In this document: piece by piece, positions 1-48,623 of the stretch | How positions within the stretch are numbered: the first letter of the stretch is position 1 | Layout of the letters: each line of letters starts with the position of its first letter | Origin: Vermamoeba vermiformis | Taxonomy: Eukaryota | DNA length: 64,000 nucleotides | Assembly: GCA_045837725.1 (NCBI GenBank) | Contig: JBEWZL010000291.1 | Span: forward strand, 1 to 64,000 | Reading direction: 5' to 3' | Notes under the pieces: generated by a model | The model's input: only the letters and a program-made list of their open reading frames with translations | The model's database searches: none | What the model was told of the DNA's origin: nothing | Made by a program: the position numbers and the translations under genes

Positions 1-2
1 TA

Positions 3-1790
3 ATGTTTACTGCCTATCCGCCTTTATCGGAGGATGACATAGAACTAGCTCGGGCAAATAACCGAGAAGTATTCCCCGCCATGGGATCGCATGCTGATAG
101 TACGCAACAAACTATTGTTATTGCATTTGTATTTATTTTATCAATTAGATGACAAGTACTTGGGCAATGCAAGAGACGTTGTTGTGTTTACGGTCTCTGG
201 TTTCGTAGATCCAGATGAATTGGTGGCTAACTGTGATGCCCCACCGGGGTGGCGCTTTGTGGTGCAGGAGCGTTCGCAGACTGGGACTCGTGAGTGCGTT
301 ACCGTTTACGCAACAATTAATTTCTAATGCATTGTGCTTAGGGGATGTTGACATTCCGCTCGTGGACAATATGATGCTTTTACAACCAAAACGAATGCAA
401 TCATACTTGAAACATCGAGTAGTCGGTGTATATTCCAGATTTATACGTTGGGTGGCGACAATTCGTAATGTAGATGTAAACATTTACGAGTCCGAGAAAC
501 GCAACTGTGGTAAGCTGTTAATATTTGGTCTGTACTTCCACTAATTATTTTATAGAGGCAAATACAACTCTTGGTTATTCTTTGTCGACCTGGACAACCA
601 ACAAACAAAAGCTAATGCAGTGGAGGCGAGCACTGCGGCCTTCGACAAATGCCAAGAAACGAAAACTCTCGCGCAGTGGACTGGCTCGGAATACGGAACC
701 TATTAAGCCTTTGATTGATATATTTTTCCCCACCGGAGGTTGTTGGGCGTTTGCTCACTTGCTTTTGCACAACAATCAACTGTTGTATTGTGCGTCTTGC
801 AAAGTTTTGCTCATCGAGCAGTTGCATGAATGTGCCGTTGGTAAATCATGTATCTTCGGCCCGAGAAAACATCTTAAAGTAAGTGACAATCTTGACGTTT
901 AATCACTTCAATCAAAATAACGAAAGCTCAGGTTGGGGAGCTGTATTCCAAGTTCGATTTGGCCAAAGCAGAATTTACTGGTGGCTTAACAATAGACTCC
1001 TCCTTTAATGGCCTCAGTCAAATAGGTAATTCCAATTCTGCAAATTAAACGGCGCGATGGATTAATTCACTCCAGGTTGTACGTCGATGTTACTTCGGAA
1101 AAATTTCCCTGGTAATAATTGGAGTAATTGGCGCGAGGGGGTTATAACAGTTGGTGGGGCGGGCGGCACGATGATTGATGGCTCATTTGTCGTCAATCGC
1201 GGGGCAGATTCAGCAAGGAATGACATGGTGCGGCTCAATTGTTATCACTGTCTTCCTCTCGAAATTGCGGTTGAATATCAAGAAGATGTCTTCCAATTCA
1301 TCGGTAAGCAACTTTCGCACTGTGTCAATTTGTGTAATGATTCATTAGGCACGTGGTTTGTTCGTCGAGTGAACCTGGATGCATACACTGAATTCTCCGT
1401 CGAGCCGTTCTACACATTTGAGCTATTCAATCGTCATAAATTCCTACGCGAACACCCCTTGGCTCATTCAGTACCAACGATCAGTAAGAGGAGTCATTTT
1501 TATCATGCACTTTGTTGACACTGAGTTTCGCAGATCCATTGCTGGTCCAAGTTTGCGAATTGTACCAACGAGTTGCCGGTGTCGTGGATGAGTTAGAGTT
1601 AAGTGACGCAGGCGGGCTTGCTATGGCGACAATATTTGGCGAGCAGCCACTGGATCTGGTGCTACAGTACCTACAGCTCCATTATGAAGTGTTGCTTTGC
1701 TCGCTTGGACTTTTTGAAGTTCCTGAGTTCGATCCCAATGCATTCATTGCCGCTTTCAACCAGCTGAGTGATCTCGATGGAATTCCTTGA
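3..1790 (+). CDS. Multi-exon protein (possibly 5' partial) with a divergent SRA/YDG-like domain at ~851-1435
   Basis: Manual splicing of GT-AG introns gives an open frame including IFGPRKHLKVGELYSKFDLAKAEF…GCTSMLL…VITVGGAGG…RNDMVRLNCYHCLPLEI…FQFIGTWFVRRV…FYTFELFNR. This follows the SRA motif order (FG…VG; GAxSIv; YtGxGG; NxaL; PvRV; yrYDGlYxV; fxLxR). Confidence 0.6.
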
Positions 1791-2044
1791 AATAAATACT
1801 CACGTGCTTTTTCTGCAGTAATTCGCCATTTTCTGTTTTGAACCAGTTCGATGCTTATGTTGTTGCAAGATACCACCAATTGCCGGCCTTCAGTAGGGTA
1901 AATGAACCCGATCCTAATTTGTCATCGAATTTTCATATTTTTTATTTTACCTAAACGGCGAAAATCTCAATTAAATTTGGACGTTCTAGAGTAATTTACT
2001 ACATTTTTTAGCCAATACTAAGGTACTATTTTTTTTGGATGCAG

Positions 2045-5000
2045 ATGTCGCTTGTTCGTGTCTTTTCGGGTAAGGCTATGTTATTTGCGCTATTAAAAAT
2101 TTATTTTTAATGTGTCGTATCTTCAGACACCGATCTACAACGTTTTATAGCTTCTCCAAATGTCATGCAGTCGTTGATCCACTTCCACGAAACAAATGAG
2201 CGTGGTCTCTCAATGGGCGACATTCACTGGGTCTACGAAGCATATCACGGCAATATAGCAAAAGATGAATTTATTGCGATCATTAATAACATTTTAAAGT
2301 AAGAAAATTCGACGGTCGATCTGTCTTCTGTGCTAACAAATTTACAGCCAGCCAAAAAATAGAGGCAATTTTACTTCGCATAAGATAGGAAAGATACAAT
2401 TATATCCATTTGAATTTGAGGTAAGAATAATAATCTTGTGCAGTGTAATCCTAATTTTCTGCGATAGTCTCCGCTGTTTAAATTTGGGTTTGTTAACCCA
2501 AGTGTTCGTTGTTTTCTGCACGTATGCTTGGTACTTATTGCAAAGGTCCCGTGTCTACGGCAACTGTTTGAACAGTCAACTACCGAGATTGCAATGCTAG
2601 TCAACGAGTATTTACTCAAATTCATTGAACAAAGCCAACCGGTCGATGCTGCAGTTCTGTTTGAAAGACTAGCAACTACTCTCGCTATCAATTCTAATGT
2701 ACGAACAATTGTGCAAGCTGGACAACAAGACGCTACCCTATTGTTACAAGATTTGTTAAATTTGGTAGATTCGCGGCGAGAACTAGCTATCCAATTCAGT
2801 ACGGCGATATTTGATGAAAATTCTACCCAAGTGAACGACGGAAGAGTGGAGCAGATCAACTGTACGTATTGTTTTTGCGACACATAACTAATGTAGTACA
2901 GGGATCGACATCTACTTCAAGCCATCCGTTCAGAGTGTTCAACAAGGAATTGACGATTTTTTTGCTCCGGAAGTGGTAGAATATCAAGCAAAGGTAATTA
3001 TTATCAATGTTTGTTAACGAAGTACTCGATCTAATGATAAAAAGGATTGCCAATTACGCAAACAGGTGTTGAACCACCCAAAACTGTTATTGATTCGAAT
3101 CAATCGTTTCTCCGAGCTCGATGAACACAAGCAAGTTCGACGTTTGACAATCGAAACATCCGTTCACTTTGAAGGAACTTTGTACCTACTTTATGGTGTA
3201 ATTTGGCACGATGGAAAAACTCGCAATAATGGACATTATGGAGTTGTTGTCAACGAACGCTGTGCTTTACATTGGAACAATTATAATGATGCTAAAGTTA
3301 CACGGGTATGTTTTTTCCAACAAGCGATCTCGGACTAAATGTCAAGTAGGAGCGTGTTGCTATTCTTTCGCAGTTAAGCGGTGGTGTTCGCTCCGCCAGT
3401 GCAGTGGTTTACATTAAACAAGCCGAAGTCGGCATTCAATTTCCGTTGAAGACTGCCGTTCCTGCTTCCTGTACGATGCAAACAAGGAAACGTAAAATCA
3501 GTGTCGCTTGCGACCTGTTGGAAACAGAAGACAACTTAATTGCTCCTCCTAAAAAAAGTAAGTGCAACGCGGCTAATTTAATTCTAATGCACCGTTAAGA
3601 ACCCAAGCAATTGGAAAAAGGCCAACCAAAGCTTCAGACACCTTCGATAGATAAGGAGTGGCAGCTGCCAGACTCGCATATTGTTGTTAAGGCTGTAACC
3701 GACGATCTCCTTATGGTGGATAAAGTGGCACCGGGAAGCAAAATAGCTCTTGAGCAAATCAAGTGCATTTACAAAGTACGCTTCCATAATGTATGTATGC
3801 GAGATAATCGAATGGTTGTCTTATTTTGGCTAGGATCTATGGGAATGGCTCATCGATTGGAAAAATAAGAAGGTGCAAACAAATTGGATATGCGAGTCGG
3901 ACATTCGGGCAAATGCACTATTAATAATGAATAAGTACTTCCAATCTCCGCATGCACTATCCAATCAAGGTTGGCAAATACGAGATAAAACAAGTAAAGG
4001 TTTTGTTCGTACCTCCTTTTGTACGTTGGATAGCGGGCCCACCAATAAGCAGCCTATGACCAACACTAGCATCTTTTCGCGCTTTTTGCCTGGTACGTAT
4101 CATTCATTCGAGCGTTGAATATTCTCAGAATTAATGAATACCGCAGAGCAAACCCGTTTACAGATGGTCGAAGATATAAACCGTTATGCCAGTCTTTCAT
4201 TTTCTGAAGTTATGCAAGAACGAAAAACATGGCGTTTGAACAAAACTGCACAGCTCAAACTTTGGGCCGAGAAAATGCAACAAAAATACAAAGGTAAATA
4301 TTACATAAGCTAACGAGAAAACAAACATTCTGATCACAATTAGGATTGCTAACGGTACCAAGTTGGGTTTCAAACGTAAAGCATTTGGAAGAATATTTTA
4401 GTACCGAGTTTGAACCTTCCGAAGAAGACAAAGTTACTTTTCAAAAGCAAAGAACAAATTGGAAACCACTTACGCTGCCAGAATTTGATATATTCATTGC
4501 CATTGGGATCGCAAGTCGTTGTGTTAAAGGTCGTCGCCTCAGAGATTACTGGACTATCAAAGATCCCTTGTATGGCAACGAATGGATATCGTCAAAAATG
4601 GGCCGAGATCGATTCGAACAGATTATGCATTATTTCCACTTTGATATTGACAAAGTTACTCAAGAAGTAGCTCAACGATGCCAAAAAAATTGGTCTCCAT
4701 CTCAAAAAATTACCTTTGATGAAACCATCTTGCCGTTTTTGGGCCGCTTTTATGCCCGAGTAAGTACTTGTTATCGTTAGATAATACATTTTAACTAACG
4801 TAACTCAGCAATTCATTCCAAGCAAGCCACATCCAAACGGTGTCTTACTCTACTTGGCCGCCGATGAATCTTACTACATTTGGGACTTCGATATATTCTT
4901 GGGTCTATGTCTGCCTCCTAAATATCAGCTGTTAGAGCTAGCCGAGAAATTGAACAATCACAAGCCTGGCCACGTGATTATAACAGATAGCAAATGGGGT

Positions 5001-5915
5001 GCGGAAGAGACGGCTACTATTTTGGATGAACAAGGCATTAAATTCTTGTTGTCGGCAAAGAAAAATGCTCCTTCATATATATTTGGTACTTTGCAAAATC
5101 CTCTACAAGAACCAGGGCAACACTTGACGTTTGAAAAAGAAGGCACTGCTGGTCCGATTATTGCTCACTCTTTCCGCGATAACAATGCAATTATGAATCT
5201 CTATTCCAATTACGTCGATGGTTAGTTCAATATTAATCAAAGTGTTTATCTAATTTCATTGCAGCGTCATCAGCCGCAACAGATCTGTGTCAAGGAGTAC
5301 CGTCGACTGCAGTAAGCTTCTTATGCTTGCGTCATTAAGTTACTAATTTAGTTGTAAATGCAGAGTACAAAGCCACTTATTGTCCAAGAATACACAAAGA
5401 CCAAAGGATTTGTCGACGAGGCGGCAAGACAAATTCATACGTTTGATTGGCCGTTCAGATTAACAAAATGGACACAAGTAGTATGGGAAAATATTATAAA
5501 TATAATCACTTGGAATTCATACCAGTGCTATCGCTACTATAAGAAAGTTCAGAACAATGACGAAGATCAATTTCGAGATTTCTTGCAAATTTTAAAGGAT
5601 GAACTTAGTCAAGAGCAGTCTGCACGCAACAAGAAAAATGCATCTCCGTTAACTAGACACAGATCTCTCAGAACCCGAAGAATAATTGTCGCAAAAGATC
5701 TGAAATCAAAAAGTCTCTCTTCTCATGTGCGAGTTCAGAGCGAAGATGTCTTTGAAAGACGAGTCAATGGTTTTTGCCTAACGTGCAACCCACGTAAACG
5801 AAAGCAAATTAGCACAGTATGTTGGAAATGCAGCTCCGACAAAAAAAGACCAATTTTTCTGTGCAGTACTTGTAAGAACACACACAAACCCGTTTGTCGT
5901 AAGCTTAAACTATAG
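2045..5915 (+). CDS. USP (peptidase C19) - chromodomain - piggyBac transposase (DDE_Tnp_1_7-like) - Cys-rich domain fusion, ~1,100 aa, ~13 introns
   Basis: Continuous frame after removing short GT-AG introns (e.g. 2070-2126, 2299-2347, 2421-2467, 2862-2901, 2994-3044). USP motifs: GFVNPSVRCF, QQDATLLL, YLLYGVIWHDG…GHY…WNNYND. Chromo-like: EQIKCIYKVR…WEWLIDWKN…TNWICESDI. piggyBac motifs: MGRDRFEQI, FDET, QFIPSKPHPNG, ITDSKW, KPLIVQEY…GFVD, then a C-terminal CxxC…CxxC…CxxCxxxH. Confidence 0.85.
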
Positions 5916-5967
5916 AATTTGTTAACAAACTTGCTGTAGGTAGTATAATAAATACTGTTTGTAATAC

Positions 5968-6430
5968 ATCCGGCGTCTAAGGGTGAAGCCTTAGCGCCGC
6001 TACAATGAGAAAGTTACGCGCTGATTCTCGACGATGTGGGTCAGAGTATGGTCTGGAGGTCGTGTTGCCTCGGCAACACCACTGGTTCGGAACAGCACTC
6101 TCACTGGCACTGAGTTGGATGGGCTAGAAAGTGACTTGTCACTTGCCGTAGCGGACACTCTTTTGTTGTACGGTCTCCTTTATGGAGGGGTGTCGCCTTG
6201 ATGCCTGCGACCTTTCTATTGATGAATCACATGGTTTTGGTCGTGTCAGTCACCTCAACGTGACTTCGACACTTGGATGGGTTAGGGCCCGGCCAAATTC
6301 CTCCCTATGAATACATGTGCTTGCTCAACCAAGTATTGTATTGTGATTAATCATTTTTTATTAATAATACAAAGAAATGAGCTGGGGGAAGTGGATCGGA
6401 TCTGGGGCCGATCCGGATCTACTCAGGGGT
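5968..6430 (+). ncRNA. Candidate structured non-coding RNA (or structured 3' region) of the transposon
   Basis: GC-rich non-coding island with many nested stems whose non-canonical pairs are G-U on the + strand, plus a twice-repeated TTGGATGGGYTAG motif. No family recognised. Confidence 0.5.
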
Positions 6431-6550
6431 GTGGCGCACTGTCAATGGACATCACCCAACAAAATTGTACCTTTTTTTGTACTACAGTCTCTTCTGGCGA
6501 TTACCAAAAATCAACGGTCCTGAATTTTTGTATAATTTTTATCTAAAAAC

Positions 6551-6573
6551 ATTGGCCGGCTGAAAAGGGATAT
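6551..6573. repeat. Candidate right terminal inverted repeat plus ATAT target 4-mer
   Basis: …GGCTGAAAAGGG|ATAT. piggyBac-superfamily ends begin CCC, and Pokey-type ends begin CCCTTTT. The partner end is not in the window. Confidence 0.5.
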
Positions 6574-7737
6574 TTGTGCGTGCTTACCTGTGCTTCTTTC
6601 ATCGCACAAATACCCTCAATTTCATTGAGAATGCAAGTAGAAGTAACTAACGCGTCGCTTGGGCTTTGAGATAGCTGTGAAATGATGAGCATCGGAACCT
6701 GATCTTGATCCCAAAGACGACTTGTAAATCTTTACTTCAACGGCTCTGGCAATTGCGTGAATTAACTTAATGATACAGTATTTTGAAAGAAGGAACTTGT
6801 TGTGGGTGTCCAGAGCGAAGGTTTCGTAAAAAGAATTATTTTATCGCAACAACAAGAGAATTATGCATTCCTCGCCGAAATCAAATAAATTGTTATCTTA
6901 AGTTAATAATAAAAATAACTTATAGTTATATTCCGTAACCAACTACCACGTTAAATTTATTTTTTTTCGATAACACGACCACTTCAAGCATAGGCACAAT
7001 AGTAACAATATGTAAACAACTATTACTTCGCTATAGATATAGTAGACTTTGATTGGCTAGAAAGGTAAGTCCAAATCCAGATTCGTTTTTTAAGATCTTC
7101 AGTACTTCTTCCTATTACGAGTTCAATATACCTCCAAAAATTCGTATATATATTATTATTATTATGGATGAACCGATTAAGCAAATTGTTAGCAGAATAA
7201 TTAAATTGATTTTAATTAATTATGGTTCAAGCAGATCTCAACTCGTTCAAGTAATTTATCGATCCCGCTTCTAGATTTGCAGGCAAATTAATATATAAAT
7301 GGTACGCAATTACCTTGGCAGTGTTTGTTATCGATTAATCAGATCTGATCTGCTAGTGCGAACGCGAAGTTTGATATACCGAAGCTTATGAACCTGTGAA
7401 TGCTACAGCGGACTAAAATAAGGTAATTATATATATTAGCACTCATACCATACATTAACAAGCTGTTTAAGGACACAAAAACTTAGGGATCAGGATCGTC
7501 CTCATCACTCGTCAACTACTCATCAACATTATATCACGATAATATATATAATTAATTAACGCCACCAAGAGTTATAGTATCACACAGTGTTTGATCAAAA
7601 TCTAGTCATACAACAAATTTTTCCTGATATGCTGGATCTGCGACAGTCGAGTCACCAAATGATGTCATTATTTGTCAATTTAAACTTGTACAACCACTTG
7701 TTGTGATGTCTTACTTCTATGTAAATTGTTATGATGG

Positions 7738-8405: not shown

Positions 8406-11400
8406 CTAACAATTATTATTCTGTATAATCATAACGACGCACTCGCGAGTGACATTCACTTCGGCTAATTCATAGTCTTCTTGAGCTTCATCTTGAGAAG
8501 ATTTGTCAAAGCGCGACTTTGTTGCATCGAACCACGGTTTGATTAATCGTTTGAGCAGTTCATTGTTCAAGTCGCCCGCTTCACTTTCCAATTCTTTTCT
8601 GAGCCAATCAAGTGCTACTTGACGGTCCATCTCGTCAGCAATTTCCAGCACGTCGAAGAAGTTACCAATCCAAGATATTGCTTGCGCTGCGTGAACGTCA
8701 TCTCCGATTCTCGCCAAGCAACACGCAGCGTTTAATGCGACTGAAAATCTGTCCTTCGGGTGCATACCAGTTTCCCACAGCATCGAGAAGATGTCCACAG
8801 CGTCCGTAAAGTATTTGGGGATCCCTTCGATCATACCAAGTTCATAAAGCAAGAATGCTCGCACCCACAGGGCCATGCTGTCGTCTTTCAATGGCTCCAA
8901 AGTGTTGTTTAAGTCTTGGCAAACAGCGCGTAGCTTCTTTTTTTCTTTTGTTGGCAGTGTTTGATCAAGGTTTTGGAGGTAGCGAATGACCGTATCTGCT
9001 AATAGCACGTGATACTTTCTATTGTTCAGCTGACGCCAATGATTGATAGTTCCTTTAAGCGACTTCCAAACATCTGCAATTGATTAGAATCATATTAGAA
9101 TGAGCAAAGTTCCCCTACCTATTTGACTCGATTGCTTTGGCGATGAAAAGAACAGGAACTTCGTGTAAATGACTTTGTAGATATCTGCGAATTCGGGGTT
9201 CTCAAAGTGAACTTCATCTAAGCGATTGCGTTCGGTTGGCTCTCGATTGCAAATTGTGGTCAAAAAGCTTAAGGTTTGCTCAACTCGATCAAGCTTGTAC
9301 TTCCACAAATCGCGTACGTCAACAAAATGTCGTTGCTCTATTCGTCTGGTCATCCAATCTATTACTTTCCAAAGTCGTTGCAGTGTCGCTTCGATCATTT
9401 GCGTATTATCTTGACCATCCAGGAAGTGTAGCGATAGGGCCAAATCAAAGTACTTGTAGGACCCAACTTTGGCGGCAGCAAACAGCTTCTTGTATTTCAC
9501 TGAATAATGCTTGGCATTGACGACGTTTGACTGCCACTTGTCGCGCTTTTTCGGTGATCCGCGAAGAAGCAGTTGGATTATTTTAGACTTGACTTCGTTG
9601 CCGTCAATAGGTGCTGATAATCCGTCAATCATGCTGTCCAACTGATCGAGGATGCTGTGCAAAAAGGGATTGCAAATGTCGCGACTTCGTAGAACAAAGA
9701 GCATAATCTCGAGGTTGGTAATCAAATCGTTCTCTGGATGGCGGAAGCTTTTAAGCAGACTCGCCTTCTCTGTGGAATATGACTTTTCCAGCTTTTGATA
9801 GATTGTCGAAACTCGCGAATCGCTTTCTGACACGGAGATGAAGTCCAGCAGGAGTAAGCAGTATTCTTCCTCGAAGCTGTCTCGTCGGTTCATCAAGTCC
9901 ATGAAGAATGGTAGCTTTTTGCCAGTACTTGGCAAGCACGCAGCAAACTTCGAAATTGCTTTGTTCAAGCGTTTCAAATCGCTCGGTGACGTCGTAATGA
10001 AGCTAACAATGTCACATTGAGTCTTCGGTGAGATGATGGTATTTTTTGGTAATGCCATTATTGCACGGAGTAAATCACCAAGAAGTCGCATTGTTGTTTG
10101 CACTGGTGCCAAATCAAAGAGGTCCTTCCATGTCTTGCGTTGTTGGGGGTGCCATTTCCACGCGTATGGAGCAATTCTTGGAGGGTTGGCCGTCTTTGTA
10201 AGCGGACCATAGTCATTGTGGTCGCTTTCATGCTTGCACACAAGCGTGTATTTGGGAAAGTAGAGAGAGTAGGCCAGAGACTTTAGGTCTTGCTTGTCAT
10301 CGGCTAAAAAGATGCTCATTTCGTTCGGTTTAGCTACTTCGTCACGGAATTCCATGCATGGAGGAAGGTGATGAAGCATCAACGTGAAGTAGTGCCATGA
10401 TGGTCGCATATCCCATGACATGATCATTGGTGGACCAAGTGGATAGACCAGAAGATCTTTTTCAATGCAGTAAGGTGGTGCGTAAAGGTTGTCCTTGTTC
10501 TGCTTGTCTCTTGCGACTCTATCGTGCAAGCTTATCCATCGAGTGATTTCCAAGTTGTAGGGGCACAAGTTGTGAACTTTGTTGTGGAACGACTTCGAGC
10601 CAAACTGCTTGCCGCCATAAGTCCAAACAATAACTTCATTCGACACTGATCTTTTGTCGACCACTTCTTGGTGACGCATTTCTGTTGCAATCATCATTCC
10701 AGCAAGAACTGCAATAGCTGATCCTGAATAGCCAACACCAGCGATGCGAATGACTTGAGGATTGTTCTCGTCTTTGGACTTGTTAACCCGTGGCTTGATC
10801 ATGTTATCGCCCTTGCCTCGGGTCAACGGATTGTAGAGGCGTCTTGCAATGGATAATGCAGCGTTGTACCATACGACTGGAACGCGATCATCTGTTGTAA
10901 TAGTAGTATGAAACTCTTCTAAATCCGCAGAAACAACATGTGCATAGTCTACAGTGTAGCTAAGTGGCAGGGGACGGATGTACCAATCTTGGGTGTTCCA
11001 AATAATGTTAAAAAATGATGATGAGCTCGGTTTGTCGTCGATCGCGTCGTAATTTGGTTTAAAGTACTTTGCGTCGCAGAGAACCAGTCCTTCAAGCTCC
11101 TTGATTTTTTGGGCGTTCTTCACGAGTGTTTCCCAGTCACTATTTGTTCTTGTCGTCCATTGCTGGAATACATCCTCGTAATTGTGATCTTCAATAGCAC
11201 CTCCTTGAGGAGCTTCATAGTGCGATAGCTGAACTTTTTGTCCATATTCCATTTCTGAACGACCGCGCTGATAAACAAGTGATACACGTGACTGCAACCA
11301 ATCAACAATATTCTGATTGTTCTTCACTTTTCGGTGTTGTCGAATGATCGATATCCAATGGACAATCTGATTCAACACTTGATTTGCAGCATCTATTGTG

Positions 11401-14231
11401 TTGATTGCCTGATTTCTTCGAGCTTCATGATTATTGATTACTGGGTCGCCAGGCATTAGAGGTGGCACAGGAAATTCAGCGCGTCCATCACAAAGAGTTT
11501 GAATAGCTCTTTCGTACCAAATAAAGTGAAGACATTCGTCGCATCCAAGGAACAACGAGCGCAGTAGGCCATAATATGTACCATCAGGGTTCAGCAGTTT
11601 GATGAAGTATTGAATTTTGATGTCGGTGCTGGAAAATTTTTGTTGGTTGAGAGTATCCATTATTTGTGGCAATATATTGGTAATTGTTGTCGCAAATTGC
11701 TCAAAGCCATCATAGTAGCCAAACGAATGCAGAAGTTCGATCACACCAAGAGCGTTCAGAGTGCCATAACCCCAAAGCCTTTTTTCTCGGCATAACGCCA
11801 ACGCTATTACAGCGTAAGCTCGAGGAAGTTGCGCCTTGCATGTCCAAGTGTGTTCTAGCTTTAGAGTCTCTTTTTGTTGGAAAGCTGAGTGGTCGAAGCG
11901 AAACTTCGTCCAGTATTCTTTTCCCGCCTTCTCTAAGTCTTTCAATTCGATGCAACCCATTGATATTGCACGACAGTATTCTCGTGCTTGAAGTTTGTGC
12001 TCGTGCGCACAAGGTGGAGGTGCCCACACACCATCGTCATCAGTGCAGAGAAGCCAACTCTTCATGGAATTGATCAAAGTACGTGAGTTTGCATGTTGAA
12101 CAAGGTAAGAGTTGCTGGTCATGTTCACTTCGACCAACAGATCGGAGATGAGAGCCAAGAACGGAGTGAGAGACTTGGTGCCATCGGGGATGTACACGTC
12201 AAACGATGAGTGAACTTGCTCGTAGTTCTTCTTCTTTGCCGTCAGCTCTTTGATGATGCAGTCTTGAAAAGCAACACCGTGACCAATTCTGCACTTGATT
12301 CCTCGAGCACAAATGCGACGGATTGCCAATGCCATGATGAACATGTGTGCGTACATTGCCTTTGCGATTCGACCTTTCTCTTCGCGAATGACACCTTCGC
12401 CACAATGCAAGCGAATGCCAAGCTTGAAGTCCGATGCAAAATCAAGCCATTCGTCTTGAATGAACGGGCAGTATGGAAATCCAAGCTCTTCAGAAACTAG
12501 ATCCAAGCCAACGACAGTATTCAGAACACTGCGATTATGGTGGTCTTTCTGCCGCAGCATTTGAAATAGGGTAATCAGCGTATGAAGTATGGGCGTGAAA
12601 TCCGAATAGGCTTCAGCATTCAGCGAATGTGACATCGCAGTATTTGGTTCTTTGATTAACAAGTCCAATGCTTCGGTACTTGTAGCTCTCCTTAGCTCTC
12701 CGTCAATTGGAAGCTTGACAAAAGTCCGAGAAATTCCTAGCAGAAATCTGTATTCCATCTTGCCGCCAGTACCCGCAGGTATCGCATTCCAAACGGAGTT
12801 ATGGACCAAGTACTGATAAATCCAAGGAGTAGTCATATCTTTCCAGCCCAAAGAAAATTCTATATAGCTTGTTCTTGATTGCGCGTAGCTCTGCAACACG
12901 TGATTGAGCAGAAGTGTGAGCGTGTATGGATGTTGCTCGTAGATCGGATCACGAAGCTTGAAGCGCATCGGATAGAACTCGGGTGTGAAGCGGCGTCTGA
13001 AGCGATGAACCAAATCAGAGTTCGATGGTGCTGAGCCGTCAACGTTGAGCATCGTGAAGCAGTTGCGAATCTGAGCCAGTGTTGCCTTTGCTTCTAGTTC
13101 TGTCCCTTCCATGAGGTAACACAGATCCGTGTTGGTGATTCCTGATTGATAGTCGAATTGTTGTGCCTTCGCGTTGAAGAACATGTACTTCTTGAGGTAA
13201 CGGGCACTGTTACCCTTTCGGGTCAACGCCAGTCGTGCAATTATTTCGTGAACCACATTGTCTTTTCCAAGGTTCGTCTTAATGTTCATCGATTCACGCA
13301 AGGCATCGATGTCGAACACTACATCAGTTGTGAAATTGAGGGCTGTTTGCCATTCCCAGTGCGGCCCATCCATTGACGTGCGCGAAAGCTTTTTGCACAA
13401 CTTGGGAGACAACGGTAGATTGAGCCATTCTTTGTCGCGGAAAGATTGAAGAATGTTCGCCACCAGGACCTTTGACAAACGGACTGGCCTTATGTTCTCC
13501 CAGTTCAGCATCGTATAAACTTTCCAATCTTGCTCTTGCAAACCAAGATCCAGCCATTTTTTTTTTGCACTCTCTTCCTTGGAGCCCTATTATTTATAAG
13601 AATGGCAACGATTTAACTTAAAATTTTTTGTGTTACATACCACATCTATTTGCTGATCTCCACCCCAGTCACATTCGACGCGAGTTGAAAGGCCCCAGTT
13701 GCGTATGGTAAATGCTTTTGATATTTGGTTATGAAGAACAGTGAACGTAAATGGATCCGAAGTCGGATGAAGTATCGCATGATAAACACCATCACGAAGC
13801 TAAAAATGTATTAGCTCAGTAAGCCTACGGTAGTCGCTCTTACCTCCATGACTGTGGGATCTTCACGGCCGTACTTTGCAATATAGCTTCCTTCTTTGTC
13901 CGGGGTCTTCAATATAATCTCGAGGGTTGGAAACTCGCGAAAGCACAACGGACCGTACCACTCCAATGACTTCAGTGGTCTATCGTTGTTAGAGAACAAG
14001 TACTTTCGCATGATTTGATCGATCCAGAACGAGTGATCTCCCATTCCCATGAAGTGGGTGTGAAGATCGGCGGTAATTAGCTCCGAATCCAAATACTCGA
14101 GCAATTGAGCGGCTTTTTTCTGGTCCTTTACCCATGCATCTCGTTTGCATTAACATTAGATACTGCTCTTAGTAATTAAGAGAGTACTTACCTCGTGCCA
14201 CCCTATCATCAGGTGGCCCATCACGATTCAT
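8406..14231 (-). CDS. Large protein: adenosine/AMP-deaminase-like amidohydrolase domain, degenerate Lipase_3-like alpha/beta-hydrolase domain, helical/TPR-like C-terminus
   Basis: Deaminase motifs: DLHTHFMG, YIEFS, VVGLDLVSEE, RLHCGEG, RIGHG, VEVNMTSN, LCTDDDG. Lipase-like: IAGVGYSGSAIAVLAG…VWTYGGKQFG…ITRWISLHDRV. Start exon MNRDGPPDD at 14231 splices to the HTH-motif exon. Main exon is ~4.4 kb. Confidence 0.8.
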
Positions 14232-24856: not shown

Positions 24857-25131
24857 TGGTGCTGCTATAATAAAGATTTGGTTAGATGTTATGGACAAAA
24901 AAATCGTTTTTAAGCTTTCTTAAAGAATAGAATCCTAGCAATTCTTCGTTAATATTATTCTTTTAGATTCACATAGAATACACGCACTTTTTGTGTCTGG
25001 ATCGAACCAAAATTAAATTTAATTCACTTACTCCGCTAGCGGGTCGAACAAGGCCTTGTACGGGCAGCCTACATTTTTGACTGTCACAGTTTTCCGCCGT
25101 ATTGCTTCGGTTTCAGGATATTGGCACGGTA

Positions 25132-25727
25132 AGAATCAGCCATACTTGTCGCTTCTTGTTAAGAATTAATAAAAGTAAGTAAGATTAATAAAATTAAGAG
25201 ATTTTTGTCGGGCAATATTATTGGCAATCTACCTTCTTAAAACCCGAATATTATAATTTGGAATAATTGGGCGCTTATAATAATTTAATCAATAAATATT
25301 TATTTTTCCTTTTCTTTTCGAATCAACCTACCACTTCGAACTGGGCAGCTGCTACGCATGCTTGCAAACCTAATTGGACGAATAACTATTTATCATTCTT
25401 CAAATGGGACTTTTGGGTGTCAGTTGTGGTGCTGAATTCGCAATTTTATCAAAGCAACTCAGATGCGATTTTAGAATTGAAGCTCTCTCTCGTGCGATTG
25501 TCCTCAAAACCTTATTCTGTCGTAGAATGCTATCTGTATTGCAGATCAACGCATTATGAATGAATTTGCACGATGAGAGATTGATAAATTGAGTCAACTC
25601 CGTATCCGAACTCGATCTCCATTCTTTCTCGTGCAAAATGCTTTTATCCGCCGCCTCTCGTCATATCATATGATATATCAGTTATTTATGCAATTTGGTC
25701 ATAATCGCACAATGAGGAGGAGCGTCC
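25132..25727 (+). repeat. ~600-bp dispersed direct repeat, copy 1
   Basis: Colinear with 30577-31155; shared blocks include ATTGGCAATCTACCTTCTTA, TTAGAATTGAAGCTCTCTCTCGTGC and ATCCGAACTCGATCTCCATTCTTTCTCGTGCAAA. Confidence 0.95.
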
Positions 25728-30514: not shown

Positions 30515-30576
30515 TTTCAGGTTCAGAAAATTGCTGCAAAATGGATAGTGATTGACATTGGAATTAGGGACAAGAA

Positions 30577-31155
30577 AGAGTCAGCCATAATTGTCACTTC
30601 TAGTTACGAATTAATAAAAGTAATTATGGTTAAGAGATGCGTTATAGTATTATTGGCAATCTACCTTCTTAGAACCCAGATATTATAATTGAAAATAATT
30701 GGGTCTTAATAATAATTTAATCACGAATAAATATTTTTTCCTTCGAATCACCTACCACACTTCGATCTGGGCAGCTCCGATGCATCTTGCAAACCCTGAT
30801 TGGGTACATATATTTAACATTCCTCAAATGGGACATGAGTGCCAGTTGTGGTGCTGAATACGCAAGTTTGTGAAAACGACTTGATGCGGATTTTAGAATT
30901 GAAGCTCTCTCTCGTGCAATTGTCCTCAAAAACGTATAATGATATAGAATGCTATATGTATTGCAGATTCCCGTATTATGAATGAATTTGCACGATGAGG
31001 ATTTGATAAATTGAGTCAACTCAAAATCCGAACTCGATCTCCATTCTTTCTCGTGCAAAGTGCTTTATCCGCTGCTACTCGCCGTATCATATGATAGATT
31101 AACTAATTATGAAATTTGGTCAAAATAGCACGATGAGGAGGCGCATGTCGCGTCC
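30577..31155 (+). repeat. ~600-bp dispersed direct repeat, copy 2
   Basis: Same orientation as 25132-25727; diverged, with substitutions and small indels. Confidence 0.95.
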
Positions 31156-31990
31156 ATCATTTCATCATTTGATCTGATGACTCGACCACAACTGGTTTGA
31201 CAATGCGATAGAATTCATTTTTATTTACTTTTTTATATATTAATGATTGCACTCTGCGTAAAGACGATAAAGACGATAGCTGTTGGAGATGCAAGGCGAG
31301 ATTTAAAAAGCTCAATGTTAAATATGAATTCTAAGCCACCCAAATATAATTATCGTTAAGCAATTAAATATATACCAATATTTCATTCCCTTTTGAGCAG
31401 TGCTGCGCTGCAAGACTGGCCAATGGAAGAAAGATTACCGTATGATTCGTCCGCAATTTTCTAAAATTATAACACTGTCGATTTATTGCATGGTATGGTT
31501 CAAGCATTACCCCGACAAATAATGCCGTAATTTTGAAAATGACTAAAAAATTTCCATCTAGGCGGCGAGATGCCTAGTCTAGGACAACTCTATTCGCAAC
31601 AATAGGGCCAAGTGCTGCAGCAAGATTCAAACGTAAAATGAAGTAAGTACGCGTGCTTTGATCTTTTAAGTTTTTAATCTCGCGGGTCACGGATGGGCTT
31701 CAGCGAGAAAATTCCGCAGTGGAAGCTGTACTTTGCTGTTAACTATGCTTTTCAACCATTAACTTAATGGGTGTATATTTAGATCCAGCTTTTGATTCTT
31801 TCATTTTTCTGGGTCTCGAGATTGAACCAATTCGCCTTGCACGAGCGGAAATTTTGCTTGCACGCCACCGAACGTTTGACGAGATTCCCGTAGCATGCCC
31901 GGGATTTGCCGCCAATAAAAGCTGCTGGTTTGTATCATTAATGATTTAATTTTATTTACGGTAACACAACAGCAGTTCGTCGAAAGCCCA

Positions 31991-33847
31991 ATGGATCGTT
32001 ACGATTACATTATCGTTGGTGCTGGCGCATCTGGCTGTGCACTGGCCGGGACTCTAGCATTGAATTTGAACATTCTCAAAGACTCCAAGATCCTGGTGCT
32101 AGAATCTGGTCGAGATATTACTCAAGAGGACTTAATCAAGATGCACAAAAATTCGGGAAATATTCCTGGATCTGGCCAAGGATTCGAGTGGAAGGATCAA
32201 ACAGTTACTCAATCTAAAGTCAACACTCCAGTTGTTATTTTTCCGCAAGGAAAAGGATTTGGCGGAGGCAGTTCAGTGAACGGCATGCTTTGGGCTCGTG
32301 GCCATCCTGATGACTACAACAGCTGGATCCCGAACGACAAGAAAGATGATCCTCAGTGGAGAAGATGGAGCTCAGAGAACATCACAAATATTTTTGATGC
32401 AATCGAGCCAACGAATATTCCTGTTATCAAAGAGCCCTTTCCAACACAGCAAACTTTAACGCCGGCAGAAGACAAACCTCCATTAATTATTGACGAAGTT
32501 TCAATCGTGGTTCGAAACACTGAATTGCAACAACTACAATACGTCCCTGCAAAGAGCTTCGTTAATGAGGTGTGCACAACAAAACACCCGTTCAAGCAGA
32601 ACTATTTGAGGGATTTGACAGAGTGCGTGTCATATCCGATCTTCAACATTGCAGGCAATCCCGGCGAGCACATCAGATGCGATGCTTATTCGATCTTCTT
32701 GAATGGTTTGGCTCAAGTTATTCACACTCCAAACTCGAACAGCACTACACCGAAGCCGGTTGACAACAAGCCCACTCGTACTGGTCCCATAGTCCATATT
32801 CTCGAGCACGCCTTTGTGTTTGACTTCATTTGTGATGACTTGAAGCGTGACACTGCCGACCAGTTTGACCTGCAGCGCAAAATTACTGGAGTCAAGTTCT
32901 TTGATGAACGATCAAGTAGAGAAGTGTATTTGACTGACAGACCAAACGCACAAGTCATTCTTTGTGCCGGAGCAATTCGCACACCTCAGATATTGTTGCT
33001 TGCTGGTGTTGGCGAAGGCAAGAATATGAAGCTGAATGATTCAGAGGTGCGTCTTAGACTGCCAAAAGTTGGACAGAACCTTCGAGATCACGTTGCAACA
33101 ACAGTTTTGGCAAAAGTCAACACGGCGAAGTGGATCGATTCGAGGATTCCAGAACTATTCACGTACAAGCCTACAATGTTGCATCAATATTTGCAGTCTC
33201 CGATTCGATTGGTCAACACAACAGCTGTCGTGGTGTTTTTTTCACTGAAGAACCAATCTTCCAAGGACAATCGTCCTTCGTTCCAACTTCAATCGAATAC
33301 GGCACAAATCGTTAGCGTACAACCTGGTAAGGACCAACCTGATGTCGGCAATTACTTTGGATTGGCTGTCATCAAACTTCGTCCTGAAAGCAAAGGAAGT
33401 GTTACACTCGAATCCCGGTTTGCACTTGATTCTCCCGCAATCAATCCGAACTACTTGGATAATGAAGACGATTTTAAGGGCCTCTGTGAAGCAACTAAAG
33501 AAGCACTGGAACTCCTGCGACACGAGAATTTCAAAAAGTGGCTCGATGATCCTGAGAACCCCGACATCACTCCTGATAAGGACGAGGACTTAGAGCACTA
33601 CATCCGCTCGAACATTGCATCATACGCACACTTTGTAGGCACGTGTCAGATGGGAGAAGATCCAAAGGACAGCGTCGTTGGACCGAACTTGAAGGTTTGG
33701 GGCTTTGCCAACTTACGCATTGCCGATGCATCGATCATACCTTCTTTGCCTTCAGCGAACACGAATGCAACTGCAATGATGATTGGCATTCAGTGTGCAC
33801 ACTTGATAATTACTGAAGTATGCAGCAAACACGTATCTAAATTGTAG
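31991..33847 (+). CDS. GMC oxidoreductase (choline dehydrogenase/alcohol oxidase-like), intronless, 618 aa
   Basis: YDYIIVGAGASG, GKGFGGGSSVNGMLWARG, VGQNLRDH, HFVGTCQMG, NLRIADASIIP, NTNATAMMIG. Confidence 0.95.
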   Translation: MDRYDYIIVGAGASGCALAGTLALNLNILKDSKILVLESGRDITQEDLIKMHKNSGNIPGSGQGFEWKDQTVTQSKVNTPVVIFPQGKGFGGGSSVNGMLWARGHPDDYNSWIPNDKKDDPQWRRWSSENITNIFDAIEPTNIPVIKEPFPTQQTLTPAEDKPPLIIDEVSIVVRNTELQQLQYVPAKSFVNEVCTTKHPFKQNYLRDLTECVSYPIFNIAGNPGEHIRCDAYSIFLNGLAQVIHTPNSNSTTPKPVDNKPTRTGPIVHILEHAFVFDFICDDLKRDTADQFDLQRKITGVKFFDERSSREVYLTDRPNAQVILCAGAIRTPQILLLAGVGEGKNMKLNDSEVRLRLPKVGQNLRDHVATTVLAKVNTAKWIDSRIPELFTYKPTMLHQYLQSPIRLVNTTAVVVFFSLKNQSSKDNRPSFQLQSNTAQIVSVQPGKDQPDVGNYFGLAVIKLRPESKGSVTLESRFALDSPAINPNYLDNEDDFKGLCEATKEALELLRHENFKKWLDDPENPDITPDKDEDLEHYIRSNIASYAHFVGTCQMGEDPKDSVVGPNLKVWGFANLRIADASIIPSLPSANTNATAMMIGIQCAHLIITEVCSKHVSKL

Positions 33848-38958: not shown

Positions 38959-41900
38959 CTAAAGGTCGCCAAACAATGAATGAAGGTCTGAATAGTTGTA
39001 GTCACGGATCATGTCACGCAATGTCAACAGATTGTGAAGCAACTTCGAAGGCTTGCTGGCGAACAAGCGAGAGTGATTCAGCACTGTGGTGATTAATTTG
39101 ATCATTGATGCGTTGTGAGGTCCTGATGGAGGCACCAAATCGTCACGTTCTTCGACGAAACCGTTGTGTTTGTCAAGTACTGTTGCACGACACAACGCGT
39201 TCCATGTCTCGTGCCACTTGTCAGAAGACAACTCTATTCCTGCAATAGTTTCATCGATGAAGTCCATCTTGTCAGGAACGACACTAAGAAGCATCATGAG
39301 TGCCGTCTTCTCTTGTTTGGAATAGCTCAAGTTGCCGTTGAGAAGTTTGAGCAGTGTGATGCATCGATGCTCGTCGTTGTTCGTGCCATGCATGTAGCGT
39401 AGATGATGAAACTCTGCTATTGAATTATTTGACTTGAGGAACGGGATCAACTCATTTGCTTCGAAGAGCGACACGAGAAGGAAGTGCGTCTTGGGGCCGT
39501 TGAATTTGATGACAACATCGATTGGTCGAATGTAGTTGGACAGCATGTGTGACTTCACTGTTGATAAGAAGTTCTTCGTAACATAGATGTTGTTGAGTAT
39601 ATCTGCCCTTTCGAACGCTCTGTTATTGCTCCATTCAGCGTCCAAAATTGTACCGAAAAATATGTGCTTAATTGGCAAAACAGGCAAAGCAGATATGGCA
39701 TCAAAGTGCGTGACTCGATCAAACGGCCAAGATCCCTCCTCGCTAGGTTCGACAAGGGGAGGTAGCTCTCGTTGTCGCTCCTCTTCGACTTCTTGTTGGA
39801 GTTCTCGTTCGTACTCTTCATTCACACTGCCAGAAATACGAGTTATCTTGCCAGTAGGAACAAGTTTGCAAGCGTGATTGATCAGATTGTCATACAGAGG
39901 ACGTGCTTTCTCGGTGAGCTGATATTCTTGACCAATCTCTCGACCCAACAACTCGCTCTTCGTTCTTGTTCCATGTTGATTGATGTGATCTTTCACGTTC
40001 ACGGACTTCAACGGAATGCCGTACATGTCTTCTGTTGCAAGTACCTCTTTTAACACCACCGCTTTGATGATATCTGTAGGCGTTATTGATGGGCTGGAGT
40101 GCAGCAAGTCCAATGCCATCGCCGCTGCATAGTGATGGAAGCCTTGTGATGCATATGTGATGATCGCTTCTTCTTGTGCTTTGATTGTGTTCTCAACGAC
40201 CCATTCGAGGATATGAACACTCGTTATTGCGTCCTCAGTGAGTTCTTGGTTGTGAGCCATTTGTTGAATCTTCATCGTCACTTCTGATGTGCCCCAGAAT
40301 GTCACATTGTGCAGTCCAACAACAAGCTTTCTCATGCGCATACAAGCTTGCATCAGTTTGTCTTTTGTGATACCAGTTGCAACCGTAACGAATGCATGAG
40401 ACTTTGTTGGGAATGGCAAGTCAGTGCCTCGAGTGTGAATGTCATCCAAGTACGTGAAGCACGAGTGCTCAAGCGGTCGACTGCTGCTCAGCTGAGTGCT
40501 GTTGCCATGTCTATCGATCAATGCCAATCTGTTGGACTCATCAAAGAAGATGCCTGTCTGAAAGCGAGGACAGATCTCGAGCACTTTCACAACAACTTCA
40601 CGGTTTGACATGCCTTCGATCAGTGCTCCGCTATCAATCAGCACATTCCAGTTGTCGTGACTGCACATCTCTTGTAAGATTCTCTCCGACTCGAACTCTT
40701 TTGGCAATGACTTGTATTGACGATTGTTGAACTTTTCGTTGGTCAGAACGTCAATCATTTTGCCGTTCGTCGACTCCACTGATGGAAGCGCCACTTGTCT
40801 GACGTACAGCGGAAGAGTGTGTTTGGTGTCATCAGTTCCCGAGAAGCCAACAACCTGTTCACACTAGTAAGTACGAGAAGTATGTATAATGGATGAGCAG
40901 CAACCTACCTTATCAGCGCTCTTTGCAAGGTCCCAAGAGTTTGCAATGATCTTTTCTGGGAATGACCGCGTGCCCAATGGAAGCACGAAGTTGTCAAGAT
41001 AGTATGCAATAACTTCGTAGTTACGACCAAAGTACAGTGTCAAATGCTGTGCAGGTATTAGTAAGTTACTCTTCAATGAGACGGTCTACTTACCTCCATC
41101 AAATTGACGTTCTCAACGTTCACTGCTTCGATCTTCTCAAGCAAAGTGACATACTTCGCGTTCATAATTGGCCTCGAGATCATGTACCATGTGCGATAGA
41201 TCTCTCGCTGTTCGTTGATTCCTTTCGTTTTCAAGTACACAAAGCATGATTTGACAGCTTCTGAGTCGATTCCAGCGCTATGTGCCAATATCGTGAGTGT
41301 GATCGCCATGTCTGGTTGACCGAACTCCACTCCATCTGCTGGCGTGTCTTTGCCTCTGAACGGAACTGCCATCGGTACTGCCCTACGTTTGTCGATACCA
41401 TAGTGAATGCGATGACGCTTCATCAGCGATGCCTTGAGCACTTCAAACGATAGCAATCCACGAAGCACAAACACAGGTACTCTGATTGACTTGTCAAGCA
41501 CCAACTTGTTCTTGAATGCATCGCACTTCTTGTCGCCGTCAGGAGTATCAGGATAGTTGTTCAGCACGAAGTCCTCAACTTGCTTCAACTCGTCAGGAGA
41601 CTTTCCTTTTGCAATCCGTAGCCAAACAGGATCAACTTGAAAGACACTAAATAGACTTGCTCTGAATGCCTCGAAGAAGTCTTCGTTGATTAAGCGAATG
41701 ACGGGAAGTACGTGCGGCTCTCCTGCACCAGGATGAAAGATGAAGTGTGCCGTTGAGGCTTTCATTACGTTATATAGCTTCTCGAGCTTTGATGGTCCGT
41801 CGCAACTGCTGTCAAGATATCTGCCTGGTACAGCATCCCTGTTCATTTGATACAAGTTGGCCATGAAGATGCATCGAACAAGTGCCAAATGAACGTTCCA

Positions 41901-47900: not shown

Positions 47901-48623
47901 GAAGTTCTTGAGGGATCCAACAGTCTTCAGAGCATCGAGCGATGTTTCCACGAGAATGGTTTCTTTTGATAGTAATGGCAGTAGCCACTCGATAATGTAC
48001 GTGGGTGTCGGTGGTTTTCTATTATCGGGAAGCTGACTTGCGCGGCTTTTCCCCAACGGATACGCACCAGAAAACTCGTTGAGCTGCAGGTCAGCCATAT
48101 AATGTAACCATCTGTCGGTAATTCTAGCCTTCTCCACTCTAAATATTGCTTTAGGCAGAGCGATACGCCACGTGCGTGTGAATCCATCATCTTCTACAGG
48201 GTAGACCGAGGAATAGTTAGTGCGACGTAGCTCCATGGGCACAAATAGCAAGTGACCTGCCGACTCTTTGTCGGCGAACACCACAATGTCACATGAGTGG
48301 TACGGAAAGTGCAACACGATGAAGCTGCCTAAGAACGCGGTTAATTGGATCGAGAAGCAATGAGATCTTGAGATACTTACTCTCTGATAACGAATTTATG
48401 GCACGTCGAGTTTTAGCGCAGACATCCTTTAACGAATTAGTAGCATTTCGGTAAATGTCCAAAGTGCTCTGCCAGCTGATTCGCAAAGAGGTGACAAAAA
48501 GTGGATCTAATCCGGGCAGTTTTGTGATGAAACTTGATGCTAGGTAAGCAATGAATGACTCTATGTATATAGAGAAGCGAGCATCTTTGGCATAGTTTGG
48601 TTTGTTGAAGAGCGGAAATACAT
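38959..48623 (-). CDS. Giant DUF3638/DUF3645-family protein (SF2-helicase-like P-loop core), ~3,000 aa
   Basis: HPEWLIFEME, QLNMGEGKS, TPEHRLS, LDESDEIL, AVPFRGKDTP…EFGQPD, GFSGTDD, LIDSGALI, YLDDIHTRGTDL, KDKLMQACMRMRKL, EEYERELQQEVEEERQ. The start codon is uncertain; extra 5' exons to ~48780 are possible. Confidence 0.85.

Follow-up and report, generated by a model that had tools for sequence, protein, structure and literature searches.

A multi-copy piggyBac-like element of Vermamoeba vermiformis with a predicted deubiquitinase-transposase fusion, an accessory gene and a conserved 3' island

The stretch of Vermamoeba vermiformis DNA considered here comprises 64,000 nucleotides (contig JBEWZL010000291.1, positions 1 to 64,000) and is referred to below as the window. 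Its first 6573 bases probably belong to a two-gene, cut-and-paste transposon of the piggyBac superfamily, present in multiple copies and active in recent times, of which they form the right-hand part; this reading best explains the evidence as a whole. A preliminary description, made from the letters of this DNA, had proposed a piggyBac-like mobile element with unusual cargo, and this core of the proposal holds. The most interesting aspects are a natural fusion of a USP domain to a transposase that is under selection, an ATAT flank, an expressed accessory gene and a conserved structured end region.

The window has a base composition of about 42% G+C and is eukaryotic DNA. Two co-oriented genes can be built on the plus strand of bases 1-6000, much as the preliminary description had them, with very short GT..AG introns (40-57 nt) and a gap of 254 bases between the genes. 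Gene 1 has eight exons and gene 2 has fourteen. The element and its genes are laid out as follows, where L001 is a related locus on a metagenome contig and X7 and X12 are public sequencing runs.

1 to 6573, plus strand: the part of the transposon in view, its right-hand portion (6.6 kb); the left end is upstream of base 1
3 to 1790, plus strand: gene 1, accessory protein of unknown family (gene model; spliced contigs of X7 and X12)
3-99, 149-289, 342-509, 556-878, 932-1025, 1076-1303, 1349-1483 and 1534-1790, plus strand: exons of gene 1, separated by 7 introns of 45-53 nt
1791 to 1796, plus strand: AATAAA directly after the stop of gene 1 (sequence; an X7 spliced contig ends at 1795)
2045 to 5915, plus strand: gene 2, fusion protein of 1082 amino acids (gene model; domain order and exon breaks of L001; codon-position pattern)
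2045-2069, 2127-2298, 2348-2420, 2468-2861, 2902-2993, 3045-3305, 3350-3557, 3600-3790, 3834-4092, 4147-4293, 4344-4759, 4809-5220, 5265-5311 and 5364-5915, plus strand: exons of gene 2

The element is present in multiple copies and has a base-exact right end at 6573. In the best DNA run (X1), word depth is 2231-2579 for the unitigs within the element (seven listed pieces from 38 to 5903), as against 260.3 for the unitig that spans the boundary (6544-6957). The latter begins 30 bases ahead of 6574, which is where the graph should branch if a repeat ends at 6573. Among the X1 contigs listed, at least one continues past 6573 into a quite different flank, and there are 13 loose ends besides; other copies, for which the preliminary description had suggested a search, are thereby in evidence. 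The copies are young, since 178 of 219 contigs are alike to 99% or more. Total depth rises to 3161-5547 in the final 600 bases, where two variant classes each make up about a third to half of it, which fits additional copies that share only the end.

About 660 non-coding bases lie 3' of gene 2 and end in ...GGCCGGCTGAAAAGGG followed by ATAT, so that the right end reads:

6554 to 6569, plus strand: right terminal sequence ending in GGG, a candidate terminal inverted repeat (TIR); it occurs once in the window, and L001 ends at the homologous position
6570 to 6573, no strand assigned: ATAT, a target-site duplication or else the element's own final four bases

The terminal GGG occupies 6567-6569. 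The L001 contig stops exactly at the homologous base, in ...AAGGGATAT, and likewise has a terminal GGG, its end reading GGGATAT. The 16-base terminus has no second good copy within the window, where the single match, at 50183, has three mismatches and is no better than chance. The terminal GGG is followed by ATAT three times: in the window's own copy, in the copy whose flank differs and at the end of the L001 contig. No TTAA target-site duplication was found at the right end, where ATAT stands. Like TTAA, ATAT is palindromic, and the four-base staggered cut of piggyBac enzymes would duplicate a palindromic tetranucleotide. The four bases may be a target-site duplication or may be the last four bases of the terminus, and the target in this lineage appears to be ATAT instead of TTAA. 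In a survey of 157 piggyBac-like elements the target was TTAA, and in the available part of that paper ATAT is given only among rare sites at unique copies, which were put down to mutation (PMC5381638). The piggyBac-style end of the preliminary description is thus confirmed in its sharp terminus, with GGG and a last base at 6573, while the departure from TTAA had been passed over.

Gene 2 has 13 introns of 40-57 nt and a TAG stop, with an AATAAA at 5947-5952 on its 3' side. It would encode one polypeptide, in which an N-terminal USP-type deubiquitinase is followed by a short basic linker with a chromodomain-like module, then by the piggyBac DDD core and a C-terminal cysteine-rich region:

2468 to 3305, plus strand: USP (peptidase C19) domain, in three exons (Pfam PF00443; Cys codon at 2510-2512, His codon at 3234-3236)
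3722 to 3962, plus strand: chromodomain-like module, split by the intron at 3791-3833 (ESM Atlas Chromo clusters; invariant block)
4448 to 5522, plus strand: piggyBac transposase catalytic domain (Pfam PF13843; Asp codons at 4718-4720, 4986-4988 and 5415-5417)
5775 to 5900, plus strand: C-terminal cysteine-rich region (Cys columns conserved at residues 1037 and 1040)

Domain searches of both genes were run exon by exon. The UCH/USP profile PF00443 matches the His-box exon (3045-3305) with 32.6 bits, above the gathering cut-off of 23.9, and the Cys-box exon (2468-2860) with 15.3 bits, below that cut-off, over profile positions 2-108. The Cys codon is within the stretch that matches the beginning of the UCH profile, and its exact register, set by hand from the Cys-box motif, is presumably that of the catalytic residue. 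The His box, with the His codon and the Asp that follows it, aligns to yeast Ubp6 and also to chains of USP2 and USP21. The catalytic Cys, His and Asp of a USP are all represented, and the domain is a predicted deubiquitinase.

The transposase part matches DDE_Tnp_1_7 (PF13843) in three exons, at 4346-4759 (E 9e-17), 4809-5219 (E 2.5e-7) and 5364-5912 (E 3e-4), and the three matches jointly span profile positions 28-349. When the protein is aligned with 43 piggyBac proteins from a representative search, the columns of D733, D806 and D917 hold Asp in 41, 38 and 35 of the 44 sequences; we take these columns to be the catalytic DDD triad, which on that alignment is intact. Cysteine is conserved in the same alignment at residues 1037 (35 of 44) and 1040 (31 of 44). 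A protein search with the transposase gave 352 matches at E<=1e-3. The lineage is remote, because only 7 of these reach 1e-10, all of them exon-sized fragments (58-358 amino acids), and the nearest full-length transposase found (P0057, 531 amino acids) is only 31% identical. The four closest fragments measure 100-221 amino acids, and a comparison of a transposase exon with longer proteins gave no homologue. Neither UCH nor Chromo was seen in the 10 piggyBac relatives that were scanned with Pfam among the 150 listed, nine taken from the longest plus the closest full-length protein. Separately, an X1 contig with a depth of about 300 carries a fragment of the transposase exon that corresponds to 4805-5065 of the window; it skips 4837-4983 and 5009-5043, is bordered on either side by unrelated sequence, and is probably a decayed piece of the element at a single-copy site.

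The chromodomain of the preliminary description fares differently from the other two parts of the USP-chromodomain-transposase fusion: the USP and piggyBac parts have their Pfam matches, but the chromodomain obtained no significant match in Pfam or the Protein Data Bank (PDB). Chromo (PF00385) gave no Pfam match at E<=10 with either half-domain exon, from the window or from L001, in searches made with each half separately. PDB sequence searches of the chromo-like exons returned chance-level matches, and a PDB profile search placed one chromodomain chain, at E 1.3, among 9 matches of chance level. In the ESM Atlas, the second-half exon recovered two Chromo clusters at a score of 0.89, at ranks 2-3; the ten best family-bearing matches all belonged to one family or clan, as they also do for a third of shuffled proteins. 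The second half opens with a block of ten residues that is invariant between the window and L001. An AlphaFold model of the second-half exon was helical and unusable (pLDDT 52.5). We somewhat favor the presence of a chromo-like fold in gene 2, while the chromodomain itself is a lead from a language model and a motif, not a finding.

A scan of metagenome contigs with a profile of the closest transposase fragments turned up three related loci, L001 to L003. L001 (3989 bases) carries a USP domain, a linker with the chromo-like module, the transposase and the cysteine-rich end in the same order as gene 2. Its amino acid identity to gene 2 is 41-67%, it breaks at the same exon borders, its exons are free of stop codons, and its USP exon matches Pfam UCH with E 3.2e-10. 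In six exon pairs compared between gene 2 and L001, mismatches are most common at codon position 3 (0.54-0.72) and rarest at position 2 (0.15-0.36), and the pattern holds for both USP exons and for the chromo-like exon. Since mismatches are concentrated at third codon positions in all exons compared, the whole fusion is kept by selection on the protein, and the comparison of these sequences places the USP-transposase fusion under purifying selection in the relative. A scan of viral contigs gave no relative, and a scan of genome contigs gave only a weak match of 37 residues (L004).

The other two metagenome loci are the same sequence (99.7% identical) and hold a degenerate relative, at 1597-2408 of L002 and 119-930 of L003. 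In them the end of the USP is followed by transposase sequence within about 60 bases, the chromo-like middle part being missing. A GGGATAT in these loci was considered as a third terminus and rejected, as the sequence that precedes it resembles neither the window nor L001 in their 3' regions.

The conservation of gene 2 also bears on a quite different explanation, in which gene 2 is a domesticated, piggyBac-derived host gene (of the PGBD or TPB kind) and the region was amplified by segmental duplication instead of transposition. Purifying selection on the protein, the richness of gene 2 in introns, a fusion to chromatin-type domains that recalls domesticated transposases, and the absence of TTAA at the flank would all suit such a gene. 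However, the eight- to ten-fold step in depth lies at a GGG terminus with a boundary exact to the base, another, unrelated flank begins directly after that boundary, and the L001 contig ends at the homologous base. The extra depth and two variant classes of the last 600 bases fit additional copies that contain the end, and the DDD triad is intact. Domestication with segmental duplication is accordingly very improbable in our judgement, and a mobile element of the piggyBac superfamily is the preferred explanation.

The accessory gene, gene 1, is real, spliced as modeled and apparently expressed. Its reading frame is open to base 1 of the window, and therefore the start of the gene and the left end of the element are out of view; counted from the ATG at 3, the protein has 480 amino acids, with an alternative start at the ATG at 81 and a TGA stop at 1788-1790. 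Contigs of public runs were compared over bases 1-7500. Those of X7 contain six of the seven introns as exact joints (99/149, 509/556, 878/932, 1025/1076, 1303/1349 and 1483/1534), and those of X12 contain four, all among the six of X7. The organism labels of these two runs, which come from two studies, differ from the label of the source, and their run type is a guess. The remaining intron, 290-341, is seen in both runs only as loose ends of 8-13 letters. Two donors, separated by four bases, are available for it: the X12 loose end agrees with 289|342 and the X7 loose end with a donor at 293|342, which would shift the frame and lead to an early stop. Both loose ends carry a T-to-C difference at 346. 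No RNA run came up among the listed runs that contain this sequence, and an RNA run that bears the species label of the source (X20) has no reads anywhere on 1-7500 and hence is no test of expression.

The preliminary description had called gene 1 SRA-like, and this label is unsupported by Pfam, PDB sequence or language-model matches. Pfam gave no match for seven exon pieces at E<=1 or for three pieces at E<=10, with SAD_SRA (PF02182) never seen; two PDB sequence searches gave only chance-level matches, with no SRA chain at E<=10; and the best ESM Atlas score was 0.76, without a family. No relatives of the protein were found when the exon 558-878 was compared with longer proteins and the piece 1078-1482 with proteins of near its length, and an exon scan of metagenome contigs gave none. 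An AlphaFold model of the piece 1078-1482 from the single sequence was unusable (pLDDT 38.1). By eye, the translation shows a basic stretch resembling a nuclear localization signal and a Cys/His cluster. A very divergent SRA-like domain, as suggested by motif resemblance, could have escaped these searches, which were made with exon pieces; as it stands, the sequence is that of a protein of unknown family.

Does gene 1 belong to the transposon? In X1 its unitigs have depths of 2579 (38-345) and 2231 (377-1362), and those of gene 2 have depths of 2354-2545; because the depth is the same, gene 1 lies inside the repeated unit. The proposal that gene 1 and the fusion gene travel together is borne out to this extent. 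The element could still be a composite: a host gene or a piece of another repeat, gene 1 would then sit beside a one-gene piggyBac element and have been co-amplified with it without functioning in the transposon. Gene 1 lacks detectable relatives and any transposon-related domain, and the spliced contigs of X7 and X12 span only 5-1795, with nothing from 2001 onward. L001, which begins inside the USP domain, is silent on linkage to a gene 1 homologue in the relative. Against a composite, there is no step in depth between the genes, which are co-oriented and close together. We regard a composite as unlikely and prefer a two-gene transposon.

The non-coding region between gene 2 and the terminus contains a further conserved part:

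5965 to 6330, plus strand: conserved non-coding island with hairpins (identity to L001; consensus pairs; most conserved block 6231-6320)

The island is 78% identical to L001 over 6231-6320 and 69% identical over 6101-6200, whereas third codon positions of the neighboring gene 2 are only 28-46% identical to L001. A plus-strand consensus of the window and L001 (RNAalifold) has 71 pairs and a free energy of -61.45 kcal/mol. Of these pairs, 19 are changed on both sides and none is broken, as against 1-3 in slid controls. The first hairpin, just 3' of the AATAAA of gene 2, keeps 11 pairs with four compensated changes. Folding of 5960-6300 compared with shuffles gave z scores of -2.4 on the plus strand and -4.4 on the minus strand, and the terminal 204 bases show no advantage over shuffles (z -0.04). 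Rfam gave no matches at E<=1 in 5800-7000, and neither a tRNA nor a tmRNA was found there. A coding reading of the island was rejected, as the mismatches show no codon periodicity and the tblastx matches are short and in all frames.

The island is probably a selected and structured cis element, acting as RNA or as DNA. It might instead be without a function of its own, as a degenerate repeat region near the terminus or a foreign repeat nested there, its structure being a by-product of palindromic DNA. Folding of both strands better than shuffles, the flat result for the terminal 204 bases and the lack of an Rfam family or transcript evidence speak for this. In opposition to this, two blocks of the island are more conserved than synonymous sites, its stems are kept by changes on both sides, and the plus-strand consensus beats that of the minus strand (49 pairs, -37.25 kcal/mol) and uses conserved G-U pairs. 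A functionless repeat is thus possible but the less likely explanation, and a selected cis element is preferred. Of the structured RNA in the preliminary description, the conserved island with stems compensated in L001 survives, while the modest z scores and the missing Rfam family do not support more.

Several observations weigh against the overall reading of a piggyBac-superfamily transposon with these parts. The Logan unitig depth is a proxy and not a copy number, and only its ratio of about 8-10 is used as an estimate. The TTAA flank, a defining feature of the piggyBac family, is absent, with ATAT in its place. Only the right end is in view, the left end being upstream of the window, and this bears on both the symmetry of the TIRs and the duplication of ATAT. 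The transposase gene has 13 introns, which are commoner in domesticated genes such as TPB2 (PMC5381638). The C-terminal region has no Pfam match to zf-Tnp_2 (PF13842) at E<=1, and no transcript of gene 2 or of the island is present among the runs compared over 1-7500. For the island, the pairs were counted on the very two sequences that had yielded the consensus structure, and 5965-6100 aligns at only 44% identity, so that some compensated pairs may be alignment artefacts. On the other side stand the DDE_Tnp_1_7 domain, the DDD triad, the multiple copies with differing flanks and the right terminus in GGG, all as in piggyBac elements. The piggyBac-like element first described is therefore upheld in its multiple copies, sharp right end and intact triad, and departs from the description in its flank.

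How might such an element work? The transposase core would most likely cut at the element ends, at the terminal ...GGG, and insertion would most likely occur at a palindromic four-base target, which in this lineage we infer to be ATAT rather than TTAA. Chromatin, or the transposase itself, may be what the USP and chromo-like modules act on: possible roles are to tether the transposase to marked nucleosomes, or to strip ubiquitin from histones, repair factors or the transposase. Gene 1 would serve as an accessory gene within the repeated unit that is transcribed separately. The hairpin-rich subterminal island on the 3' side would be a cis-acting part, used in recognition by the transposase, as an end-processing structure or as a structured transcript.

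These parts can be combined, tentatively, into a single picture in which a piggyBac lineage switched from TTAA to ATAT, built a deubiquitinase with intact catalytic residues and a module resembling a methyl-lysine reader into its transposase, acquired an expressed accessory protein and a structured cis-RNA, and with this set chooses or prepares the chromatin that it enters or leaves. We consider this joint picture rather doubtful as a whole. The chromatin toolkit that the preliminary description had seen here is retained as a USP domain fused to the transposase and kept by purifying selection in a relative; the SRA component is unsupported and the chromodomain is a lead. Nothing found bears on the proposed likeness to the cooperation of UHRF1, USP7 and H3K9me, and that analogy is speculation.

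Elsewhere in the window, a complete 5S rRNA gene (58918-59036, plus strand; Rfam RF00001, 104.7 bits) is isolated, with protein-coding genes around it. Five adjacent long open frames on the minus strand (38959-48395; 634, 319, 649, 1169 and 300 amino acids) are probably one giant gene, and the frame of 649 amino acids matches DUF3638 (E 2.9e-49). Two intron-free frames are present: one of 1498 amino acids on the minus strand (9090-13586), with only a weak match to Lipase_3 (E 5.6e-5), and a GMC oxidoreductase on the plus strand (31919-33847), with both Pfam halves. A repeat of about 500 bases (25131-25644 and 30576-31066), with 82-89% identity between copies 5.4 kb apart, is a local duplication of gene-flanking sequence. 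An inverted repeat with arms of 111 bases (56729-56839 and 57568-57678), 95% complementary, 728 bases apart and with a second inner pair, may be a foldback element or another small transposon. Finally, Gly/Phe-rich repeats at 62431-62604 (plus strand), each 66-69 bases long, are contained in an open frame, in a pattern that recalls FG-repeat proteins.

The element shares with canonical piggyBac-like elements, such as piggyBac of T. ni and its relatives, a DDE_Tnp_1_7 core with a DDD triad, a possible cysteine-rich C-terminal domain, a GGG terminus next to a palindromic A/T tetranucleotide, and presence in multiple copies. Canonical elements have one intronless open reading frame of about 600 amino acids and a TTAA target (PMC5381638); unlike them, the present element has two genes with 13 (gene 2) and 7 (gene 1) introns, a fusion protein of 1082 amino acids and an ATAT flank. 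A long, intron-containing gene whose core is joined to extra modules is also found in the domesticated transposases, namely Tetrahymena TPB2, Paramecium PiggyMac, human CSB-PGBD3 and PGBD1. TPB2 interacts with heterochromatin (PMC3861120), and none of the four is described with a USP domain in the accessible portion of PMC5381638. Unlike domesticated host genes, which lack ends of their own, gene 2 is part of a repeated unit that has a defined terminus and about 8-10 times the depth of its flank.

Ubiquitin and SUMO proteases are known from other transposons, including Ginger1 (OTU or Ulp1), MULEs (Ulp1) and Helitrons (OTU, VTD), and a Trichomonas vaginalis protein combines a pfam01609 transposase with a Peptidase C19 domain (PMC2836005 and PMC9741609). 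As in the Ginger1, MULE and Helitron proteins, a cysteine isopeptidase of the ubiquitin system is here built into a transposon protein. The T. vaginalis protein has a protease of the same family (C19/USP), and its transposase family, pfam01609, also gave weak matches here. The present case differs from all of these in belonging to the piggyBac superfamily, in having the protease at the N-terminus with the chromo-like module after it, and in the second gene. In chromoviruses, a methyl-lysine reader on a DDE-type recombinase steers insertion to marked chromatin. Gene 2 resembles the chromoviral integrases in the possible attachment of such a reader to a DDE-type recombinase, but the enzyme is of another superfamily and its chromo-like module, which profile searches did not confirm, lies N-terminal to the core. 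Teratorn, a piggyBac element fused with a herpesvirus-like genome (about 180 kb with viral cargo; PMC10175614), is likewise a piggyBac-type element with cargo beyond the transposase; the element described here is probably smaller than 10 kb and has one accessory gene. Full-text literature searches, which did not extend to Repbase, found neither a USP or chromodomain fusion nor such a second gene in any piggyBac element. The piggyBac superfamily and the proteases of other transposons are thus familiar; what would be new, judged from sequence, is a USP fusion within piggyBac, together with a second gene and an ATAT flank.

The piggyBac element is a major tool for gene delivery, and the family is defined by its strict TTAA target. 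If a natural relative does target another palindromic tetranucleotide, it would reveal what in the enzyme determines the choice of target and would widen the toolset. For the accessory gene and the conserved structured island, too, the piggyBac superfamily offers no described counterpart. The Ulp1, OTU and VTD proteases of other transposons pose the same question as the USP domain, and to our knowledge none of them has a known role. A transposase naturally fused to a deubiquitinase, and possibly to a reader of histone marks, would offer a handle on how DNA transposons meet host chromatin and ubiquitin-dependent repair or silencing.

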